Shown here in pieces: positions 1-11,941 of a DNA stretch of 52,600 nucleotides. The notes under the pieces were generated by a model that saw only the letters and a list, made by a program, of their open reading frames with translations, searched no databases and was not told where the DNA came from. The DNA is from Candidatus Staskawiczbacteria bacterium. GTDB taxonomy: Bacteria; Patescibacteriota; Minisyncoccia; Minisyncoccales; Staskawiczbacteraceae. Position 1 is the stretch's first letter, and each line of letters starts with the position of its first letter. Where the stretch lies: assembly GCA_023245145.1 (NCBI GenBank), contig JAHFKW010000002.1:1-52600 (forward strand), written 5' to 3'. Position numbers and translations under genes: made by a program.

Positions 1-576
1 AAGGCGCAAGCCGCTTTATGAATGGTCTGCGGTCTATCAGCTAGTTGGTGAGGTAATGGCTCACCAAGGCTATGACGGATAGGGGGCGTGAGAGCGCGAC
101 CCCCAAGAATGGCACTGCGACACGGGCCATACTCCTACGGGAGGCTGCAGTCGAGAATCTTCCGCAATGGACGAAAGTCTGACGGAGCGACATTTCGTGA
201 TGGATGAAGCCCTTCGGGGTGTAAACATCTTTTATCTGGGAAAAAGTTATTGATTGTACCAGATGAATAAGGGGATCCTAATTCTGTGCCAGCAGGAGCG
301 GTAATACAGAATCCCCGAGCGTTACCCGGATTTATTGGGCGTAAAGGGTTGGTAGGTGGTTTGGTAAGTTTGCGATTAAACCTCATCGGCTTAACCTTTG
401 AGCTGTTGCAAATACTGCTAGACTAAGAGGGCGTTAGAGGCAAACGGAACCGATGGAGTAGGGGTGAAATCCGTTGATATCATCGGGAACACCAAAAGCG
501 AAGGCAGTTTGCTGGGGCGACCCTGACACTGAACAACGAAAGCGTGGGGAGCAAAAAGGATTAACACCGTTGTGAC

Positions 577-720
577 GGAATTTCTAATTATTCTAATTGT
601 TCTAATTTCTAATCAAATTATAATTCTTGAATGTCTAATTTCTAAACGGTTTAGGAATTTTGGCATTAGGATTTGGTATTTGATTAGGTCAATTAGGTTA
701 ATTAGAATAATTAGAGATTT
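577..720. repeat. AT-rich periodic inverted repeat, (nnCTAATT)n..(AATTAGnn)n, in intron P1 loop
   Basis: CTAATT units followed by CTAATCAAAT, mirrored by ATTTGATTAG and AATTAG units. Confidence 0.85.
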
Positions 721-1198
721 ACGAACAATGGCCGGTAGGGTATACCGGAGATAGTCCCCAGGCGCAGTATTGTGTCCTGGAAAACTTGGCTGTATGCTGG
801 AAAATCCGTTGAAAAACGGACAATCAGCAGGCAACCTTAGTTTACTGAATGATGGGTTGGGTGACTCGTGATGAGACTGCTTGCCGGGGAGCTTAATCCC
901 GGAGGCGAGTTGCGCTAACTAACCCATAGCGAGTTCTTTGGAAAGTGCACTTCCAAGGAACTCGCTCCTATCATTCAGTAAATTAAGAGAGTCCTCAGAG
1001 ACTACACGCCGAGCATTGATGAATATGCGAGCCGAAGCCGAAAGGCATCCTCGCCATTTGCGAGGTCAGGAGGATTAGATACCCTCTTCGGCTCGCACCT
1101 TTTTATCGATGATGATATAGTCCGAACTATGCAGTAATGTATAGAGACGAGCAGAAATGCCTCGTCCACAAATTTAGGCATTAAGATTTCAAAATTAT

Positions 1199-1232
1199 TT
1201 AGAAATTAGAATAATTAGAAATTAGAAATTCC
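1199..1232. repeat. Half copy of AT-rich AATTAG repeat near intron 3' end
   Basis: TTAGAAATTAGAATAATTAGAAATTAGAAATTCC. Confidence 0.8.
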
Positions 1233-2194
1233 AAATTTGTAGCAACAAATTTGTAGATACCCTTGTAGTCCACGCTGTAAACGATGGATGCTGGCTATTG
1301 GCAGTGTCGACCCTGCCAGTGGCGAAGCTAACGCGTTAAGCATCCCGCCTGGGAAGTACGAACGCAAGTTTAAAACTCAAAGGAATAGACGGGGACTCAC
1401 ACAAGCAGTGGACCATGTGGCTTAATTCGACAACAAACGAAGAACCTTACCAGGACTAGAAACCCAACTGACCATTCTATGAAAGTAGAACTTCGCAAGA
1501 CAGTTGGGCAGGTGCTGCATGGTTGTCGTCAGTTCGTGTCTTGAGACGTACCGTTAATTCGGGTAACGAACGCAACCCTTGCTCTGTGTTTTACATGTCA
1601 CAGAGGACTGCCCGAGATAATTGGGAGGAAGGTGAGGATGACGCCAAATCAGCATGGCCCTTGATGTCCTGGGCTGCACACGTGGTACAATGGCCGGTAC
1701 AATGGGCCCGAACGCGCAAGCGGGAGGATAATCCCACCAAAGCCGGTCTCAGTTCGGATTGAGGGCTGAAACTCGCCCTCATGAAGCTGGAATTACTAGT
1801 AATCGCCAATCAGCTACGTGGCGATGAATACGTTCCTGAGTCTTGTACTCACCGCCCGTCAAGCCAAGCAAGCTGGGGATAGCCGAAGTTCCATGCAAAT
1901 GGGCCTAAGCTAGATTCAGTAAGAGGGGCTAAGTCGTAACAAGGCACGGGTAGCGGAAGCTGCTCGTGGATCATTTTTTTAAAAGTGTTGACTCTAGTTA
2001 AAGTCCAGAATTTAGATTTTAACTTTAAATGTTTTGCAGGTTTCTGGCTACGCCAGATCTCGCGCAGCGAGACATTTCAAAAACCAGCTATTTAAGACAG
2101 CTTTAAGAAACGAATACTTACCAAGAATAAACATTCCCGCCTAGCGGGTTTTGTTTTACCTTGAAATTTTAAGAATTTGTAGTAACATGGGCGT

Positions 2195-2647
2195 ATGGCT
2201 CAATATTTCACCAAAGAAGGCTTAAAAACCCTGAAAGATGAATTGAAGGAATTAAAGACGACTGAAATGAGGCGGATTGTTAAGTTGATTGCCGAGGCAG
2301 CCTCTTTTGGCGATTTAAAAGAAAATTCGGCTTACCACGAAGCTCGCAATTCCAAATCATTTTTGTTGGGCCGAATTGAACAACTTGAAAACGCCATCAA
2401 TGATGCAATAATTAAGGATAAGATTGAAGACGGAAAAATTCAGATTGGTTCAAGGGTTAAAATGCTGTTTGCAGGAAAAGAAGAAGAGTATCAGATCACA
2501 TCGCCAACCGAATCTGACATTTTAAAAAATAAAATTTCGTACCAATCGCCGTTTGGACAAAAACTGATGGGGAAAAAGGCGGGCGAAGAATTCAATTACG
2601 AAGCGGGGGCAAAAAAGGTTAAAATTAAGGTGCTCTTTATAAAATAA
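2195..2647 (+). CDS. greA: Transcription elongation factor GreA
   Basis: GDLKENSAYHEA and ISYQSPFG motifs. Confidence 0.95.
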   Translation: MAQYFTKEGLKTLKDELKELKTTEMRRIVKLIAEAASFGDLKENSAYHEARNSKSFLLGRIEQLENAINDAIIKDKIEDGKIQIGSRVKMLFAGKEEEYQITSPTESDILKNKISYQSPFGQKLMGKKAGEEFNYEAGAKKVKIKVLFIK

Positions 2648-2674
2648 AAACGCTTTTTAGGACGTTTTGCTGTG

Positions 2675-2745
2675 TGGACCCTGCGGGAGTCGAACCCGCC
2701 GCTCCTCATTGCAAATGAGGTGTGTTACCGATATACCAAGGGCCC
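2675..2745 (-). tRNA. tRNA-Ala(TGC)
   Basis: Minus-strand cloverleaf GGGCCCT..AGGGTCCA, anticodon arm CCTCA-TTTGCAA-TGAGG, G3:U70 Ala identity pair. Confidence 0.93.
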
Positions 2746-2788
2746 ATTAGTAGTTATAGTATTACAATTAACGAAAAATTTCAACATT

Positions 2789-3277
2789 ATGAAAAAACTG
2801 TATCTTATCATCGGGGGAATTGTAGTTTTGGCAATTGTGGGCTTCATTGCCAAAGGACTTATTTTTGGAGCGCTCACTGGGGGACATTATCAGCAAAATC
2901 TAAATGGCACGCAAACCTATTCAAATAATGAGGGTTCGGTAACGGTGGGAAATAATGCCAGCATGCCAAGCGAATGGCCTTCTGATGCGCCAAGTAATTT
3001 TGCCGGAGGCAGTATCGTATTTTCAGGAAATTCAAATCCGCAAACCGGAAAAAATGGAGCAGTGGTTTCCTACACAGTGAAAGGCGGAACGATTCAGGGT
3101 GTTTCTGATTATTACAAAGCTCAACTGACTGCCAATGGCTGGACACTTCAGGGTAATTACAATGTTGCGGGTCAGGGAGTTTTGGCTGCCCAAAAAGATG
3201 GCCGAACCTTTGGCGTGAGCATTTCCGACAGTGGTAATGGGAGCGTCACCGTCACTGCTGGCTTGGAGTTACAGTAA
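2789..3277 (+). CDS. Hypothetical exported/membrane-anchored protein
   Basis: ATG 2789 chosen because the upstream ORF extension overlaps the tRNA; MKK plus hydrophobic helix, Gly/Ser/Asn-rich beta domain. Confidence 0.8.
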   Translation: MKKLYLIIGGIVVLAIVGFIAKGLIFGALTGGHYQQNLNGTQTYSNNEGSVTVGNNASMPSEWPSDAPSNFAGGSIVFSGNSNPQTGKNGAVVSYTVKGGTIQGVSDYYKAQLTANGWTLQGNYNVAGQGVLAAQKDGRTFGVSISDSGNGSVTVTAGLELQ

Positions 3278-3283
3278 AATTAA

Positions 3284-3325
3284 AGAAAAAAGCCTGCTTC
3301 CTTTTTGGGGTAGCAGGCTTTTGTT
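3284..3325. terminator. Bidirectional intrinsic terminator
   Basis: A-tract, AAAAGCCTGCT..AGCAGGCTTTT, T-tract, between convergent genes. Confidence 0.85.
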
Positions 3326-3963
3326 TTAGCCTCCCAATGCAATGGTTGTGCCATTAGGAGAACTAAACGATGCGGGATTTTTTACGGGTAATTTCCCTCC
3401 AAAAATTGTTAGGAAAAGTGCGCGTTTGCCAGGATCATCTTTATTTGCCTTAAGATAACCCTCAACAATGCCATATCCAACGTCGTCGTAAATGGAATAG
3501 CTGTGCACAGTGTACAGAGGTCCATGCAGTAAATTTTTTATAACATCTTTCTGACTTAGGATGTCTCTTTGGAGCACGGCTGCACCTTTCCAGCGCATAT
3601 TCTTAGCTACGCCATCATCGACCCTCAATACACCGCCCCACATTTCCTTGAGGAGTTGAGGAAGTCTTTCGTTAGCGATTTTTCCGCCTCCTGTGTAATT
3701 TTTTCTTGTTGGCGCCAAGCTTCGTTTGGGTCTTTCTCTCTTTCCTTAAATACCGTAATTTGCCTGATTTTTTTAGGCTCAGTGGTGAGTGAAGTAAGGA
3801 AAGAGTTTGTCGCCATGCCCGCCGGAAAGGCTAATAGAGAAGTCAGAGCAAACACCAGCAGAGTTAGTTTGATACGTTCCCGTGCGATTAGTCGTCCGTT
3901 GTCTTTTTTGGGTTCGTCGATGGTGATTACGTTTCTCTGACTTACATCGGATGATTTTTTCAC
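3326..3963 (-). pseudogene. SD-led accessory gene split into two overlapping frames (3625-3963, 3326-3718)
   Basis: AAAGGAG-7nt-GTG start and N-terminal TM helix; the second frame continues with protein-like sequence but has no own SD. Promoter TTGGCT-18-TAAAAT at 4037-4066. Confidence 0.55.
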
Positions 3964-4085
3964 GGCGAGCTCCTTTGTTAAAGTGCCGGTTGACGCCAGT
4001 TCAATAGATCAAATTTACAATCGCTAAAGTTTAATTATTTTATCATACATTTGAAAAATCAGCCAATTTGTAATAGTATAATCAC

Positions 4086-5105
4086 ATGGCACTATCTATC
4101 GCAATCGTGGGGCTTCCAAACGTTGGTAAGTCCACGTTGTTTAAAACATTAACTAAAAAGGAAGTCTTGATTGCCAATTATCCTTTTGCCACGATTGACC
4201 CGAATGTGGGGGTGGTTTTGGTTCCTGATGAAAGAGTAGATAAGCTGGCTGAATTTTCCATTTCAGAGAAAAAGATTTATGCTACGGTGGAATTTGTGGA
4301 CATTGCCGGGTTGGTAAAAGGCGCCAGTGAAGGCGAGGGGTTGGGTAATAAATTTTTAGCCAATATTCGGGAAACCGATGCTATCGTCTATATTTTACGC
4401 GCCTTTAAAAATGATGACATTATCAACACGCAAAGTGACATTAATCCAATGCGTGACAAAGAAATTTTGGACGTGGAATTGATTTTAAAAGATTTGGAAA
4501 CGCTTCAAAAGTATAAAACCAAAGATGCTAAGGAAACTTCGGCGATAACCAAGGCCGTTAATTTTCTTAAACAACAGAAAGTGTTAGTTGAGCAATCTTG
4601 GAGTGAAGAAGAAAAATCAGTATTAAGAAATTTCCAATTGTTGACTCTCAAGCCAAGATTATATGTGTTAAACGGATCACGGGACGACTTGATAACTTTA
4701 CAACTTGATAACTTGACGAACTATCTTTTGATGAATATTGCGGAAGAATATGATTCAGCGGCGTTTACAAAAGAAGAAAGAATTGGGCTTGGGTTATCGG
4801 CGGAATCGGGGTTAGATATGTTAATTAAAAAATCGTATGAATTATTGGGTTTACAAACCTTTTTAACCACCGGGGAAACGGAAACGCGGGCGTGGACGAT
4901 TCATAAGGGCGACAAAGCTCCGCAGGCGGCAGGCGTAATTCATTCAGATTTTGAACAAAAGTTTGTGAAAGCGGAAGTAATTTTTTGGGAAGATTTGTTG
5001 AAAGTTGGTAACTATGCCAAAGCCCGCGAAACTGGATTAATCCGGACGGAAGGTAAGGAGTATGTGATAAAGGATGGAGATGTGGTTGAGTTTAAGCATG
5101 GGTAA
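4086..5105 (+). CDS. ychF: Redox-regulated ATPase YchF
   Basis: [36 protein letters not shown] domain AAGVIHSDF. Confidence 0.97.
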
Positions 5106-5172
5106 GAGGGTATAAATTTTGTAATAAAAAAATCCCGACGCTTGGTGGTCGGGATCTGGAGGGCTAGTTTTA

Positions 5173-5436
5173 TTATTGATTATCGAACTTTGCCCATTTT
5201 TTGACATTCTTTTTGTGTATTTGGCGTAGTCGTCGCCTTAGCGCGGCGGCTTCCTTGCGGGCTTCGGGTTGGGTTTCATAAGAAGAAGATGATTGCCATT
5301 TACCATTACCATCAAATATGGTAACCCCGAAACTCCAGCCACCTCCAGCCTGCTTCATGGGGCCGGGGTGGACTAAGACGTAGTGAGGTTCGATTCTGCG
5401 AGAAAGAGAATCCTGAACCATAATCGGCTTCAACAT
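5173..5436 (-). CDS. Small accessory protein, SD-led cassette
   Basis: GGAG-7nt-ATG; promoter TTGACA-17-TAGAGT (5485-5513); terminator ATCCCGAC..GTCGGGAT plus U-tract (5125-5155). Confidence 0.75.
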   Translation of the reverse strand: MLKPIMVQDSLSRRIEPHYVLVHPGPMKQAGGGWSFGVTIFDGNGKWQSSSSYETQPEARKEAAALRRRLRQIHKKNVKKWAKFDNQ

Positions 5437-5563
5437 GAATGGTCTCCAAAAAATATTGAGAATGGTGAGTACTGCTCTAATAATACTCTATTATATAATT
5501 CATAATCTGTCAAGTAAAATTTGAAATAAAAAATCCCACGGTGGCGAGTCGTGGGAAACTAGA

Positions 5564-5689
5564 CTAGTAGTGGAACAATCCGGCGCAGGCCATAACATCA
5601 GCAAAGACTTTACACGTCATAACCAGCGGTACCGTGACACAAAAATACTTCCACGCTAATCCAATACTTTCTTCATTGTAGCGATACAT
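5564..5689 (-). CDS. 41-aa accessory peptide (MYRYNEESIGLAWKYFCVTVPLVMTCKVFADVMACAGLFHY), SD-led cassette, not in ORF track
   Basis: AAGGAG-6nt-ATG; promoter TTGACA-17-TACTAT (5732-5760); terminator TCCCACG..CGTGGGA plus U-tract (5528-5556). Confidence 0.65.
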   Translation of the reverse strand: MYRYNEESIGLAWKYFCVTVPLVMTCKVFADVMACAGLFHY

Positions 5690-5761
5690 GATTTGCTCCT
5701 TGATAGAGAGGCAGGTTCAGGTGTTGAGGCTATAGTAGTATGAATCATTAAACTTGTCAAC

Positions 5762-6055
5762 ATGAAATTTGAGATAAAAAACTTACAAAGCAATATTAAT
5801 ATTATTATGCGACAGATTGGTTACCAACCAGCTTACTTCCAAGAGCCTGGGGAATTTAGTGTAGTTAAAAAAATAATGGGAAGTGACTACCCCAGATTTC
5901 ACTTATATATAAAAAATACAGGAAGTGATTTTAGCTTTAATCTTCACCTTGACCAGAAAAAACCTTCGTATGAAGGTGCAACGGGACATAGTGGAGATTA
6001 TGATGGAGAGGTAGTGGAAGGCGAGGCAGAGAGAATTCAGCAGTTATTAAAGTAA
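5762..6055 (+). CDS. Hypothetical protein
   Basis: 97-aa ORF with host-like codon use, YPRFHLY..LHLDQK; family not named. Confidence 0.75.
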   Translation: MKFEIKNLQSNINIIMRQIGYQPAYFQEPGEFSVVKKIMGSDYPRFHLYIKNTGSDFSFNLHLDQKKPSYEGATGHSGDYDGEVVEGEAERIQQLLK

Positions 6056-6099
6056 AAAAAGTGCGCACTTTGGTAGTGCGCTTATAGGAAAAATCACTG

Positions 6100-6318
6100 T
6101 CAAGGATTTATGGGAGTGATGGTCTCTGGATTAACCAGTCGCTCTTCGCTTGGATTTCGATTGTGAAACTTGATCCAATACTGTAGTTCTCCCGAAGCTG
6201 TCTTTGTCCACTCAGTCACTTTAGCTAGATCTCCGTTTCGCAGATCGTTGGGATCCTGAGATATATAAATTACAATCGTTCCAATCTTCAATCTCGTATT
6301 TGGATTTATCCCGTTCAT
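6100..6318 (-). CDS. Small accessory protein (possible SH3-like beta barrel), SD-led cassette
   Basis: AAGGGG before ATG 6318; promoter TTGACA-17-TATAGT (6358-6386); terminator GCGCACT..AGTGCGC plus U-tract (6054-6081). Confidence 0.72.
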   Translation of the reverse strand: MNGINPNTRLKIGTIVIYISQDPNDLRNGDLAKVTEWTKTASGELQYWIKFHNRNPSEERLVNPETITPINP

Positions 6319-6379
6319 GATGATTCCCCTTGTTTGTGAAAGTTGCTGAACAAATAAACTATAGTCTATAAATCTCAAT

Positions 6380-7030
6380 ATGTCAATAAAAATACTCTAC
6401 GAAGACAATCACATTATTGCGGTTGAAAAACCCGCAGGTGTTTTGAGTCAGGGAGACCGGTCGGGGCAAACCAGCATGTTTGGTTTGGTGAAAAAGTATT
6501 TAAAAGAGAAATATAAAAAACCGGGAAATGTGTTTTTGGGAATTGTGCATCGTTTAGATCGGCCGGTTTCTGGGATTTTATTGTTTGCTAAAACCAGCAA
6601 AGGTGCATCAAGATTATCCGAGCAATTCAGAAACAAGACGATTGAAAAAACGTATCACGCGTTGGTAGTTGGAAAACCGCCGAAAAATAGGGGAGTACTG
6701 GTGAATGTGATTGGCAAGGACGAAAAATTATTGAAGGCTAAAGAATATGGTGATGGGAAAGAGGCCGTGTTGCATTACGAATTGGTGAAAAGTAATGGGA
6801 AATATTCTTTACTGAAAATACAAATTCAAGGTGGGCAGTTTCATCAAATTCGGGTGCAACTTTCTTTGGCGGGGATGCCAATTGTGGGGGATGTAAAATA
6901 TAAAGGTGAAGCATGGAGTTTTGGAGAAGCAATTGCATTATGCGCCACGGGAATTTCATTCATACAAGCCACTGTGGATAAACGGGTTGACTTGTCTATT
7001 GCTATTCCATTTGAATTGGGGGATAATTAG
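6380..7030 (+). CDS. RluA-family pseudouridine synthase
   Basis: ILYED, KPAG, HRLD catalytic motif, HQIRVQL, PIVGD. Confidence 0.95.
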   Translation: MSIKILYEDNHIIAVEKPAGVLSQGDRSGQTSMFGLVKKYLKEKYKKPGNVFLGIVHRLDRPVSGILLFAKTSKGASRLSEQFRNKTIEKTYHALVVGKPPKNRGVLVNVIGKDEKLLKAKEYGDGKEAVLHYELVKSNGKYSLLKIQIQGGQFHQIRVQLSLAGMPIVGDVKYKGEAWSFGEAIALCATGISFIQATVDKRVDLSIAIPFELGDN

Positions 7031-7045
7031 AGAATATTCATTAAA

Positions 7046-7140
7046 ATTTCTAATTATACTAATTAACCTAATTATACTAATTAACCTAATTAATCTAATC
7101 AAATATTAATGATTAGAAATTAGAACAATTAGAATAATTT
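7046..7140. repeat. Intergenic copy of AT-rich CTAATT/AATTAG inverted repeat
   Basis: 9-nt period (TATACTAAT/TAACCTAAT), CTAATCAAAT..TGATTAG centre, as in the rRNA copies. Confidence 0.85.
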
Positions 7141-7147
7141 TAAAGCT

Positions 7148-7837
7148 ATGCTTTACAGTGATTGGTCGTTTGATATCATCCAACCGGTGGTGCAAGCATG
7201 TATTATGTTTGTGCTTAGCCTATTGTTGGCGGTCGTGGTGTTTGTAATTGGTTATTTAATTTCCGTGGCGATTGGCAGAATCGTTACTGAAATTTTAAAA
7301 GCCTTGAAATTTAATACGCTTTTTGCAAAAGAGGGTTGGGACAAGGCTTTAAAAACCGCTAATATTACCGTGCATCCGTCGGAATTTATCGGTGCGATTG
7401 TAAAGTGGGTGTTTGTGATTGTGTCGTTGTTGGTATCGGTGGATATTTTGGGGTTGGCGCAGTTTGGAGGAATTTTAACGCAGGTGTTGGATTATTTACC
7501 AAACGTAATTGTGGCCGCATTAATTTTTGTGGTGGCGGTGATTATTTCTGATATCATTGAAAAAATTATTCGCGTGGCGGTAGAAAGAATGAGGGTGGGG
7601 TATGGACATATTGCTTCCATGATTATTACCTGGGCTATTTGGATTTTTACTACTTTTTTAATTTTAGAACAGCTTTTGCCTAATAGTATTTTGATTCAAA
7701 CACTATACATGGCGATGGTGTATGGAATTGTTGGGGCGTTGGCGCTGGGAATTGCCATTGCTATTGGACTTGGTGGCAAAGAAACCGCCGGAGAAATTAT
7801 TTCAGAAATGTGGAAGAAAATTGAACATAAAAGTTAA
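7148..7837 (+). CDS. Multi-pass membrane protein, CmpX/MscS TM-helix type
   Basis: Several TM helices, YLPNVIVAALI, IAIGLGGK. Confidence 0.75.
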   Translation: MLYSDWSFDIIQPVVQACIMFVLSLLLAVVVFVIGYLISVAIGRIVTEILKALKFNTLFAKEGWDKALKTANITVHPSEFIGAIVKWVFVIVSLLVSVDILGLAQFGGILTQVLDYLPNVIVAALIFVVAVIISDIIEKIIRVAVERMRVGYGHIASMIITWAIWIFTTFLILEQLLPNSILIQTLYMAMVYGIVGALALGIAIAIGLGGKETAGEIISEMWKKIEHKS

Positions 7838-7851
7838 TTTTTTTGGATTAA

Positions 7852-7877
7852 AGGGCCCCGCTAAGCGGGGCCCTTTT
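7852..7877 (+). terminator. Intrinsic terminator
   Basis: GGGCCCCGC-TAA-GCGGGGCCC-TTTT. Confidence 0.85.
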
Positions 7878-7887
7878 GCATTACCTA

Positions 7888-7916
7888 TTGACATACAATT
7901 ATAAATAGAATAAACT
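7888..7916 (+). promoter_or_regulatory. sigma70 promoter for 23S-5S transcript
   Basis: TTGACA-17-TAAACT upstream of the 23S leader. Confidence 0.7.
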
Positions 7917-8948
7917 GGCTAGTAATGATGAATCAAATAAAAACCACAACAAAAAGCGGATAATTCTTTACCCATTTTTTAGGTTTTAGAAACCCGCTGC
8001 CAAGCGGTTTTTCATTTCATCAGCGAACCTTGTCAATTTTACCCTTATTAAAATATGCTCAAAAGGCATATACTTTTATTTGGTAAAGCAAATAAAAATA
8101 AGGTCTCTTAATCCATTTTAAGATGGGTCTTATTGGATTAAGAAAAGGTAACAAAAGCATATTCGCTGATAAATCTTTCACCAGATTTATTAGCATCACA
8201 AGTTCATACGATACATAAAATCTGTATCTATTACTTACGCATACGATCCCGCTTTGCGGGATCATTAAAAAATAGGTTATAAGCGAATGGTGGATGCCTT
8301 GGGATATTACAGTGATGAAAGACGTGGCGTGCCTGCGATAAGCGTCGGGGAGGTGGCTAGCAACCTTTGATCCGGCGATTTCTGAATGGGGAAACCCTAT
8401 TGTGTGAATAACGCAATAATCTGTGCCGTAAGGCATGGAAGCTAACCCACTGAAGTGAAACATCTCAGTAAGTGGAGGAACATAAAACAATGTCTCGCGC
8501 AAGCGAGACGCATTCCCTTAGTAGTGGCGAGCGAAAAGGGAGCAGTCTAAACCAGAATTTATTCTGGGGTTGTAAGGGTTTAACGTCGGGGGCATTACTG
8601 TGCTCTGCACAGAATATTGAAATATTTAAACATTTAAATATTCCGCGCAGGGCGCGGTAATGAATTCCGAGGGAGAACAAAAAGGTAAGTTATTAAAAGA
8701 AGCACCCTGGAAAGGGGCACCATAGAGGGTAATAGTCCCGTACTCTAAAATAATATTACGCTCCTTGTTAAGTTTCTTAAGTACTGTCGGGAATGATAAC
8801 CTGGCAGGAAGCAGGCCGAACTATCGGCCAAGACTAAATATGTAATATCACCGATAGTGAACCAGTACCGTGAGGGAAAGGTGAAAAGTAGGGGGATGAC
8901 CCCGGTGAAATAGAACCTGAAACCATTTGCTTACAAAGAGTCGGAGCG

Positions 8949-9450
8949 GCCACATCACACTGTGTGTGATACGGAATTGTTCTAATTACTCTAATTAACC
9001 TAATTATTCTAATCAAATGCTAAATTACCAAAATTCAAAATAAAAAAACGGCACCAATTTTTGGTCGGTGCCTCGTTGTTGCGATGAGAAAAAGATATTT
9101 TACTTTTTCTCGCGCCTGAAGAATGCGATGTATGTTTCAGTAAGTCCGATAGCTTGACACACTGAAACTAACTCCCAGCCTTCCTGCGCCATTTCATTCG
9201 CTGTATCAACTACCCCATCTTCGATGTCTTCAATTTCATTTGAACCGACGACACCGTAGTCGATAAGCATTTTGCAGTGTTCGTACATGTTTTCCTCCTT
9301 TGAGTAGGGAAACTAACTGGTTATTAATCTATCATATTATAGTTTTAATGTCAAGTTTGAATTTTGGAAATTAGTCATTGGTATTTGATTAGAATAATTA
9401 GAACAATTAGAAATTAGAATAATTTCACATCGCGCTTAGCGTGATGTGGC
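8949..9450 (+). other. 23S rRNA intervening sequence in helix 25
   Basis: About 500 nt between GGAGCG and TGTGACGGCGTGC; ~90-nt imperfect arms (GCCACATCAC/GTGATGTGGC, CTAATT/AATTAG repeats, CCAAAATTCAAA/TTTGAATTTTGG). Confidence 0.9.
9100..9288 (-). CDS. DUF4177-like small protein, SD-led cassette inside 23S IVS
   Basis: NEMAQEGWELVSV..FFRR resembles DUF4177; AAAGGAGG-5nt-ATG; promoter TTGACA-17-TAGATT (9326-9354); terminator GGCACC..GGTGCC plus U-tract (9042-9072). Confidence 0.8.
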   Translation of the reverse strand: MYEHCKMLIDYGVVGSNEIEDIEDGVVDTANEMAQEGWELVSVCQAIGLTETYIAFFRREKK

Positions 9451-11457
9451 TGTGACGGCGTGCTTTTTGCAGAACGAGCCAACGAGTTTATCTATTCGGC
9501 TTGTCTAAGCCCTTACGGGGTGAAGGCGTAGCGAAAGCGAGTGTTAATAGCGCGTTTGCCGAATGTATAAGACCCGAAGCGTGACGAGCTTACCATGTGC
9601 AGGCTGAAGTCTGTAGAAATACGGATGGAGGGCCGAACCCGTGAGTCGTGCAATCCTCTGGGATGACGTGTGGTAAGGAGTGAAAAGCTAATCGAGTTAC
9701 GTAATAGCTGGTTCTTCCCGAAACAGCTTTGGGGCTGGCGTCTGTTAAGATAGTATAGGGGGGTAGAGCACTGAATCGAAACTCTTGCCGCAAGGCAGAT
9801 TTTCGAATCAAACTCCGAATACCCTATGCCGTAAACAGGCAGTTAGACCGTGGGGGCTAAGCTCCATGGTCAAAAGAGTAACAGCTCAGATCATAGTCTA
9901 AGGTCCCTAAATTATATTAAGTGTTATGAAGGAAGTGTTTTGTCCTCGACAGGCAGGAAGTTAGCTTAGAGGTAGCTATCTTTTAAAGAGTGTGTAACAA
10001 CTCACTGTCCAAACTTTGCGGATTTCCGCGAGGAGGGACGAAATGCGCCAAAGATTTCCGGGGCTAAATATAATACCGAAGACATGGACTTATTTTTCCT
10101 TCGGGAAAAATAATTGGTAGGGAAGCGTTCCTATCGCAGTGAAGCAGGAGAGTAATCGACTGTGGAGCGTTAGGAAGTGAGAATGTTGGCCTGAGTAACC
10201 GCAATAGGGGTGAAAGCCCCCTACACCGAAAGTCCAAGGTTTCCTTGGCAATGGTATTCAACCAAGGGTTAGTCGGTCCTAAGGCGTATCCGAAAGGAGT
10301 AACTGATGGACAATGGGTTAATATCCCCATACTTGGATGCATTTCCATGACGTTGCGCATTGTAGTAATTTGGGTGGATAACTGGATTTCACATTCTGAC
10401 TTTTAAGAGTTAAGAAGAGTTGGCAGAAGTGTCAGCAATCCAAGTGAGCGCAGTGCCTAGAAAAGGCGTCGTGGGCGTGGTGCATTCAAACCGTACCGCA
10501 AACCGACACAGGTGGACAAGCGTAAGTATGCTAAGGTGAACGGGTGAGACCTCTTTAAGGAACTAGGCAAACAAGTGGACGTAAGTTCGCAATATGTCCT
10601 GCCCTTTTTCGCAAGAAAAAGGGCCGCAGCTACTGTCTCTCTACCGACTGTTTATCAAAAACACAGCTCCCTGCTAACTCGCAAGAGGATGTATAGGGGG
10701 TGAGGCCTGACCAGTGCTGGAATGTTAAGTTTGGGAGTCCAAGCCGCAAGGTTTGGGCCCACTGAATGAAGCACCAGTGAACGTCGGCGATAACTATAAT
10801 CGTCCAAAGGTAGCGTAATCCCTTGCCGGGTAAGTTCCGGCCCGCATGAATGGCTTAACGAGTGGAGAACTGTCTCAAAGAGGCGCCCGGTGAAAATGCA
10901 ATACCAGTGAAGATGCTGGTTACCTGCGGCTAGACGGAAAGACCCCGGAAGCTTTACTGTAGTTAGATATTGAATTTTAATTTTTGATACGTAGCGTAGT
11001 GGTGAGCCTTTGAAGCGGAATTTTCGGATTCCGTGGAGGCGCCGATGAAACAGCCATTTTTAAAAGTTAATATTCTAATCCACTTAACTGTGGTCACAGT
11101 GTTTAATGGGCAGTTTAAATGGGGCATTTGCCTCCTAAAGAGTAATGGAGGCGTTTAAAGGTTGGTTAGGTTCGGATGGAAATCGAACCGATAGGGCAAA
11201 GCCATACACCAGCTTTACTGCAAGACGGCTATGTCGCGCAGTTGCGAAAGCAGAACTTAGTGAACCGACGTGATTTCATAGGAAACACGAAGATCATCAG
11301 CCAAAAGCTACTCCGGGGATAACAGGCTAGTAGAGCCCGAGCGTCCATAGCGACGGCTCTGTTCGGCACCTCGATGTCGGCTCAACTTATCCTGGGGGTG
11401 GAGCAGCTCCCAAGGGTCGTGCTGTTCGCACGTTAAAAAGTTACGTGAGCTGGGTTC

Positions 11458-11488
<31 letters not shown>

Positions 11489-11830
11489 ACCGCAGGCGTT
11501 GAGTTTTGAGGAGATTTGTTCCTAGTACGAGAGGACCGGAATGAACCAACCTCTGGTGTACCAATTGTTCCGCCAGGAGCATTGTTGGGTAGCTACGTTG
11601 GGAATAGATAAACGCTGAAAGCATATAAGCGTGAAACTAACTCCAAGATGAGAACTCTTAGATTTCCCGAAGATTACGGGATTGATAGGCTCCAGGTGTA
11701 AGCTCCGCAAGGAGTTCAGCCGGGGAGTACTAATAAATCATTATATTTTTTAGCGTAAGAAAATAGATACAGATTTTACGTATCTTGTGACTATGCGATT
11801 GTTATCTTTAACACCACAGATTGAGTTCTG

Positions 11831-11941
11831 TGGTGGCGATTATACTGGTGTTGTCCCACCTGTTCCCATTTCGAACACAGCAGTGAAATACACCAAGGCC
11901 GATGATAGTGTGATGAACGCGAAAGTAGGTAGTCGCCACCA
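11831..11941 (+). rRNA. rrf: 5S rRNA
   Basis: TGGTGGCGAT/GTCGCCACCA terminal stem, CCCATTTCGAACAC, GCCGATGATAGT, GAAAGTAGGT. Confidence 0.93.

Follow-up and report, generated by a model that had tools for sequence, protein, structure and literature searches.

What is a complete small gene, with its own promoter and terminator, doing inside a 23S rRNA gene, and how could it have come to lie there? No genes in a cell are more conserved or more heavily transcribed than those for rRNA. The locus that raises this question, positions 8946-9453, belongs to a 52,600-nucleotide stretch of DNA from a Candidatus Staskawiczbacteria bacterium, hereafter called the window, which represents bases 1-52600 of contig C9 in a genome (G000) of 625,768 bp on 14 contigs, rated 99% complete. 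Our best explanation, which we regard as probable, is that the segment is an intervening sequence (IVS) derived from a dispersed repeat and that the apical loop of its hairpin acts as a slot for a swappable accessory gene. Host gene, hairpin arms and the gene unit with its open reading frame (ORF) are laid out as follows.

8267-11753, plus strand: 23S rRNA gene, host of the insertion (Rfam RF02541, 2259 bits, full length).
8946-9039, plus strand: 5' arm of the insertion (inverted repeats I1-I5, direct-repeat family D1, fold).
9040-9072, minus strand: intrinsic terminator (hairpin 9072-9050, T-run 9049-9040).
9100-9288, minus strand: ORF of 62 codons plus stop, encoding a DUF4177-like small protein (ORF list, Pfam; ATG at 9288, stop 9100-9102).
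9294-9301, minus strand: Shine-Dalgarno sequence AAAGGAGG, 5 nt before the ATG (read from the sequence).
9326-9354, minus strand: sigma-70-type promoter, TTGACA-17 nt (with TG)-TAGATT (promoter scan, 10 of 12 matches).
9356-9453, plus strand: 3' arm of the insertion (inverted repeats, fold).

The 23S rRNA gene has 3487 nt in comparison to 2925 positions in the Rfam model, and a genome search returned this 23S stretch as a single copy. The 508-nt insertion at 8946-9453 follows model position 583, within the opening stem, where it stays out of the alignment as one large block between flanks that both align. We take the stem at position 583 to be helix 25, following E. coli numbering; the site list in PMC4990558 was used alongside. 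This source names helices 9, 25 and 45 as common IVS sites, where RNase III excises the insertion and a fragmented 23S rRNA results.

The 5' arm is composed of a G+C-rich base (8946-8972), 9-nt AT-rich units (8975-9013) and a terminal CCAAAATTCAAA at 9028-9039, and the 3' arm opens with TTTGAATTTTGG (9356-9367) and closes with a G+C-rich base. When folded, the region 8930-9470 reaches -190.7 kcal/mol in comparison to -113.8 ± 5.8 kcal/mol for 100 shuffled sequences (z -13.3), none of which was as good. The outer stem comprises 84 pairs and leaves an apex of about 316-318 nt. At the stem base, differences between species are compensatory, i.e., the two sides co-vary. A gene for RNase III is present in the genome (G000:C3:2166-2561, PF14622, 131 bits versus a cut-off of 35, in a 237-codon frame). 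Several marks of an IVS are found together: a site at a helix tip, a long inverted-repeat stem, an RNase III gene and, as described below, sporadic presence among close relatives. We consider 8946-9453 a probable IVS of the classical type at the tip of 23S helix 25, which would be excised from the precursor. A helix-25 IVS with arms of about 90 nt is what a sequence-only reading of the window had proposed, and the model position, the 84-pair stem and the z-score uphold it. A group I intron was not found by Rfam within 8946-9453, the only match being the one in the 16S rRNA gene (676-1144), and no endonuclease domain was found there either. An insertion of the group I intron or homing-endonuclease type was ruled out, as both intron core and endonuclease ORF are missing.

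The apex holds a single promoter-to-terminator unit, antisense to the rRNA. On the minus strand, the -35 box TTGACA occupies 9354-9349 and the -10 box TAGATT 9331-9326, with a predicted transcript start near 9319. The terminator scan describes 8 pairs, of which 5 are G-C, a loop of 7 nt and the tail GTTTTTTTAT. Because A's precede this hairpin and no T's follow it on the rRNA strand, it should not stop transcription of the rRNA. Promoter, Shine-Dalgarno sequence, ORF and terminator were all found where the sequence-only reading had placed one antisense unit in the loop.

Taken alone, the promoter scan is not above chance, with 2 sites found versus 1.8 expected. The layout is above chance, because all five antisense gene units at this site (here called cargos, one in the window and four in sister species) carry TTGACA-17-TAnnnT, which lies 95-108 nt away from the insertion's 3' border. 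The genome contains 22 units of such a style, with consensus promoter, leader, Shine-Dalgarno sequence and a mostly small ORF; 14 have at most 105 codons, and 3 of the 22 adjoin rRNA genes. As this promoter type is common across the genus, we read it as an ordinary gene promoter. An extended 29-nt pattern was observed as well, with CTA before TTGACA, AAGG after it, CTTG in the spacer and TATGCTAT at the -10 box. Allowing up to 3 mismatches, this pattern occurs in 28 copies in 16 of the 25 genomes of the genus (reversed control: 0), and in the genome of the window it is found at C12:2049-2077.

The sole Pfam match of the 62-residue protein up to E 10 is PF13783 (DUF4177), at E 1.1e-4 and 22.7 bits, below the gathering cut-off of 25. 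Eight of ten small relatives scanned match DUF4177, and three of them pass the cut-off, namely P0002 (the protein of G013) and P0007 at 29.3 bits each and P0011 at 31.6 bits. The earlier label 'DUF4177-like' stands as far as the match itself and those of the relatives go, and falls short in that the score of the protein stays under the cut-off. The ORF is single-copy in its own genome. Homologues occur in 2 of 59 relatives, G013 (49% identity) and G005 (44%), and both are free-standing, with a TTGACA promoter and terminator of their own, no rRNA nearby and no arms of this kind. A profile search of 1.8 billion representative proteins gave 17 matches at E 0.001 or better. Across 12 aligned sequences, invariant residues are located in a tryptophan-containing central motif and in a basic C-terminal motif, and the ORF of the window is intact and keeps the invariant residues of the family.

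The AlphaFold model (pLDDT 84.7) predicts the order strand-helix-strand-strand (E2-10, H22-34, E39-45, E52-60). With DUF4177 the protein shares length, the tryptophan-containing central motif and a predicted fold like the helix plus three strands described in PMC11322243, an agreement judged against that description and not against a solved structure. DUF4177 is a family of unknown function, with one member reported to be antibacterial (PMC11322243). The Bacillus subtilis member YjzH is reported to be made when glucose is exhausted and to be a candidate RNA-binding protein (bioRxiv 10.1101/2025.03.21.644579). A word-index protein search returned only the 62-residue protein itself, and a sequence search of the PDB nothing below E 0.05. 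In a Foldseek comparison with the PDB nothing reached E 0.001, the top match being part of fibrillarin at 0.06. No match was obtained in PHROG or PADLOC, and NCBIfam yielded only the sub-threshold Sp36_fam (26.3 bits versus 50). At none of five loci from genome and metagenome collections (L054-L058, including those of G013 and G005) does a relative of the ORF lie inside rRNA. Judged from its sequence relatives, the window ORF is a real and rare gene, which elsewhere is an ordinary stand-alone unit. Coding conservation, on which the sequence-only reading had staked its interpretation, is borne out by the free-standing homologues, the profile matches and the shared motifs.

This conservation bears on a different view of the locus, according to which the RNA is the point: the antisense transcript would pair with the precursor loop, RNase III would destroy the piece or aid processing, and the ORF would be incidental. 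We regard it as very unlikely. A strong Shine-Dalgarno sequence together with protein-level conservation and free-standing homologues indicates a coding gene, empty hairpins and insertion-free sister species do without such an RNA, and the cargo of one sister species (G006) lies in sense orientation. What speaks for this view is the full complementarity of the transcript to the 316-nt loop and the presence of RNase III; in Helicobacter pylori, an antisense RNA reportedly guides RNase III cleavage of the pre-rRNA leader.

To compare the same site in relatives, 60 related genomes were searched with 8780-9620 and the sequence between the conserved flanks was extracted. Thirty loci were fetched and 27 were readable, i.e., the window's own and those of 26 relatives; G010 and G019 were dropped for a missing flank and G050 for a flank match that was too short. 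The sequence-only reading had asked whether relatives carry empty hairpins or different cargo, and both turned up among the 26.

No insertion beyond a short tip: 14 relatives, 12-36 nt.
Hairpin without gene unit: 7 relatives (G020, G023, G035, G033, G051, G040, G058), 84-243 nt.
Hairpin with cargo, different in each: 5 relatives (G021, G002, G009, G017, G006), insertions of 468-549 nt.

All five cargo-bearing relatives belong to the genus of the window. Four of them could be folded and gave stems of 64-84 pairs, and the six cargo apices, including that of the window, measure 286-388 nt. Within the genus, the region is visible in 13 of 25 genomes and both flanks in 11, of which 6 have cargo, 2 an empty hairpin and 3 no insertion; the 23S flanks of the insertion are 95-98% identical. 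In the rest of the family 26 genomes matched, with 17 uninterrupted, 3 split (84, 188 and about 246 nt) and 6 covered on a single flank. At the level of the order, 243 of 400 genomes matched and 55 were split by hand count; 20 of these 55 split sites were examined, comprising 18 gaps of 61-233 nt and 2 on separate contigs, and none reach 300 nt. Among the genomes searched, cargo is found only in this genus. In G019, one of the dropped genomes, locus L039 (G019:C23:7019-10155) shows a 43-nt piece of 23S and a right repeat arm beside protein genes; with part of the sequence masked, no upstream 23S was seen within 1.5 kb, and the locus may be a relic or a mis-join.

The cargos of the five sister species are listed here.

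G021: antisense, 67 codons.
G002: antisense, 65 codons.
G009: antisense, L017 1792-2038, split over two overlapping frames of 36 and 51 codons.
G017: antisense, part masked.
G006: sense, L015 1666-2204, 98-codon cysteine-rich ORF, no visible promoter.

All five antisense cargos, those of the window, G021, G002, G009 and G017, consist of TTGACA, a spacer of exactly 17 nt, TAnnnT, a Shine-Dalgarno sequence, an ORF and a hairpin, and the T-run of their terminator abuts the arm. The frame split in G009 could reflect a frameshift, a sequencing error or decay. In G006, the ORF begins 17 nt past the arm and ends with a hairpin and T-run in the sense direction of the rRNA. Readthrough of this terminator-like hairpin would be required for the 23S rRNA to be made.

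In pairwise comparison the insertions are alike only in their arms, and those of G021, G002 and G009 also through the promoter to the -10 box. A shared promoter platform with swapped ORFs was considered for these three and is not claimed, since the promoter likeness may simply equal the genus consensus. The cargo ORFs of the genus are mutually unrelated, and none of them can be placed in a Pfam, NCBIfam, PHROG or PADLOC family by an accepted match. For the G021 and G002 proteins, no homologue was found elsewhere in 78 family genomes save one weak, stop-interrupted match, and the G006 cargo has just two near relatives, both truncated. Atlas look-alikes were obtained for G002 (unnamed, mostly viral clusters at 0.91 that have Sm/Hfq-like models) and for G021 (score 0.76), and serve as leads only. 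The cargo has a G+C content of 39-47%; the arms have 17-26% and other loci of the genus 35-45%, which gives no clear foreign signal. With unrelated genes or an empty slot in sister species, the time scale of cargo turnover is probably that of species.

Another account would treat the cargo as a neutral or decaying passenger, silent or irrelevant and with no working link to the rRNA, in a slot that is merely tolerant. The cargos are orphans, that of G009 is frame-split, and the ORF in the Coxiella IVS is described in PMC4990558 as unexpressed and eroding; given the split in G009 and the missing promoter in G006, some cargos may indeed be decaying passengers of the Coxiella kind. As a general account it has to contend with the consensus promoter, Shine-Dalgarno sequence and terminator kept in 5 of 5 antisense cargos, with an intact ORF in G000 that keeps the invariant residues of its family, and with a single orientation in 5 of 6 cargos, which come from related species and so are not independent. 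We hold this account to be possible, if rather doubtful.

Could the small gene have been put into the rRNA gene by a chimeric join? Such an assembly artefact has in its favour that rRNA regions are often broken and that the contigs of G010, G022 and G079 end at or near the site. The same architecture is nevertheless seen in six separate assemblies, with self-pairing arms and different cargo, and the junctions coincide exactly with the apex of a perfect stem. Of the words sampled from 8800-9600, two DNA runs, one of them possibly the source sample, contain 0.83 and 0.79, which also speaks against a chimera, an explanation that we find scarcely credible. Contigs built from two DNA and two RNA runs have zero depth on 9064-9345 in all four, DNA included. 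Joints in the RNA runs that skip 8946-9453 carry 8-25 other letters and represent the ordinary short helix-25 tips of other organisms. In the DNA runs, the joints 9005>9378 and 9013>9389, each side of which is just 22-24 letters long, probably come from cargo-free repeat copies elsewhere.

Such copies are a feature of the whole genome. A search with the insertion gave 29 matches, mostly AT-rich arm units elsewhere, and motif scans with folding identified 7 cargo-free hairpins of roughly 70-150 nt and several half copies. The hairpins lie at the following positions.

C6:5240-5375: cargo-free hairpin.
C8:121485-121585: cargo-free hairpin.
C9:569-715: cargo-free hairpin, in the 16S insertion.
C9:7045-7135: cargo-free hairpin.
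C13:31518-31625: cargo-free hairpin.
C14:11202-11269: cargo-free hairpin.
C14:80028-80134: cargo-free hairpin.

Outside rRNA, the cargo-free hairpins fit the short spaces that separate co-directional genes, with hardly a base to spare, which suggests that these gap-filling palindromes serve in the processing or stabilisation of operon transcripts. In alignment, the inner portions of the hairpins match the inner arms of the 23S insertion, and the cargo corresponds in position to their apical loops. The same repeat has many matches in genomes of the genus. The 23S stem thus appears to be a copy of an AT-rich palindromic repeat that is scattered in the intergenic gaps of the genus. The sharp borders that the sequence-only reading had drawn around the cassette hold against cargo-free repeat copies, in this genome and in G020, and against the arms of G006.

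The 16S rRNA gene is interrupted, within the conserved 790-loop motif, by about 690 nt (window 564-1256). This insertion is composed of the cargo-free repeat hairpin (569-715), the group I intron at 676-1144 and one more repeat arm (1199-1233). The forward arm can pair about equally well with a partner directly 5' (-41.9 kcal/mol) or 3' (-44.0 kcal/mol) of the intron. A copy of the interrupted 16S motif was seen within the group I intron, near 1072-1086. Because the 16S arms flank a group I intron, the same repeat arms bracket foreign cargo in both rRNA genes. Genome-wide, inverted-repeat pairs with a spacer of 0-3000 nt number only four, i.e., the IVS, the insertion in the 16S rRNA gene, a pair of tRNA genes and two distinct hairpins lying side by side, so that cargo at a hairpin apex is limited to rRNA genes in this genome.

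These data also bear on the idea that arms and cargo form one mobile element, a passenger gene within a structure resembling a miniature inverted-repeat transposable element (MITE), which transposed into helix 25 and whose deletion derivatives are the empty hairpins. Of the hallmarks of a MITE, the hairpin has inverted repeats and dispersed copies, and no second copy with cargo was found in the genome. The arms could well be read as terminal inverted repeats of a dispersed family that is abundant across the genus, and the same arms flank the 16S group I intron. Against this idea, the self-comparison of the genome, which gave the four inverted-repeat pairs, revealed no second arms-plus-gene copy. 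G000 and G006 have near-identical apex-proximal arms, yet unrelated cargo in opposite orientation; the homologues of the cargo in G013 and G005 lack such arms; and no transposase is present. Transposition of arms and gene as one unit is in our judgement improbable.

The preferred explanation, a repeat-derived IVS with a swappable gene in its apical slot, would work as follows. The long stem would be cut from the precursor by RNase III, the 23S rRNA would still work in its fragmented form, and the apical loop would be a permissive slot, in that anything lodged there would leave the rRNA along with the stem. In the window, the slot would hold a self-contained accessory gene in the usual small-gene style of the genus, and sister species would have filled it with unrelated small genes or left it empty. 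Transcription of the gene would run from about 9319 to 9040 and meet that of the rRNA gene head-on, and the mRNA would have full complementarity to the loop RNA that is cut out. Owing to collision of polymerases and attack of RNase III on the duplex, output of the gene may be low during high rRNA synthesis and rise when synthesis stops. For exchange of cargo between strains, homologous recombination via the arms and the near-identical 23S flanks would be the simplest explanation. A stronger version of this mechanism, in which the apex is a dedicated landing pad for exchangeable genes, with an output inverse to rRNA synthesis and with the flanks as universal homology arms between species, strikes us as unlikely.

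Several points weigh against the explanation as a whole. Excision, fragmentation of the 23S rRNA and minus-strand transcription are all inferred. All compared genomes are metagenome assemblies, in which rRNA is hard to assemble, and the limited visibility of the region within the genus (13 of 25 genomes) belongs to this point. The protein scores under the Pfam cut-off for DUF4177, and the searches yielded neither a relative of solved structure nor a function. One cargo is frame-split (G009) and one promoterless (G006). For the entry of cargo into the apex, neither a recombinase nor a donor copy was found.

How does this locus relate to known systems? With the RNase III-excised IVSs at helix 25 or 45 of Salmonella, Helicobacter and Proteus, as PMC4990558 describes them, it shares the extended stem-loop at a helix tip, the long complementary arms, a scattered occurrence in close relatives and a genome that encodes RNase III. 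It differs from the IVSs described there in that the stem is apparently a copy of a genome-wide intergenic repeat and the loop an antisense unit varying by species, with excision being presumed. With the IVSs encoding S23p (23S_rRNA_IVP) in Coxiella, Leptospira and Xanthomonas, also treated in PMC4990558, it has in common a protein-coding ORF in the IVS loop. In the account given by that source, S23p ORFs represent one family on the rRNA sense strand and have no promoter of their own, whereas the window ORF is antisense and has promoter and terminator; the cargos of sister species here are, unlike S23p, mutually unrelated. Identity of the window protein with S23p (PF05635) was considered and rejected, the Pfam scan up to E 10 giving only PF13783 and the ORF being located on the minus strand.

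Bacteria of the candidate phyla radiation (CPR) carry a single copy of the rRNA genes, and short non-intron insertions at known IVS sites are common in their 23S rRNA and thought to be of the same type (PMC11270868). That survey, which covers the same group of organisms, also mentions uncharacterised insertions of 500-1000 bp in CPR rRNA genes and annotates insertion ORFs by Pfam domains, mostly of homing endonucleases. Its section 5 describes neither antisense self-contained small-gene units nor replacement of cargo at one site (PMC11270868). Our literature search returned no description of such an antisense cargo slot, while the supplementary insertion tables of PMC11270868, which lay outside the search, may list some. 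The IVS as such is known; what sets this variant apart is that the tip of its hairpin holds a hypervariable gene slot, in most cases antisense.

The other rRNA genes of the window are given below.

1-1908: 16S rRNA gene, 5' end cut, containing the group I intron 676-1144 (Rfam).
11832-11941: 5S rRNA gene (Rfam).

The genes for 16S and 23S rRNA are unlinked, with about 6.3 kb of ORFs and a minus-strand tRNA gene (2675-2745) between them (window 1908-8267). Two small units with promoter and Shine-Dalgarno sequence lie on the minus strand of this interval (promoters at 5513 and 5760), and a third directly past the 5S rRNA gene (12272). A second insertion in the 23S rRNA gene, of about 90 nt, is located at 8590-8680 (Rfam model position 312) and forms a G+C-ended hairpin with an AT-rich middle. 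As DNA contigs from two metagenome runs join across it with skips of 70 and 87 nt, relatives without this insertion live in the same water.

For the annotation of rRNA genes, the finding means that sense-strand Pfam surveys of rRNA insertions will miss cargo of this kind, and that annotation pipelines likely discard small orphan genes inside rRNA coordinates. Dispersed intergenic palindromes and rRNA intervening sequences, treated separately so far, are now linked. If our explanation is true, these bacteria would have an unexpected home for accessory genes within an rRNA gene, where complete, promoted genes are swapped between sister species, and they would show, in nature, a gene that faces the cell's strongest transcription unit head-on. 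If the landing-pad version were true as well, the gene would be on only when ribosome production stops, as in starvation, dormancy or loss of the host.

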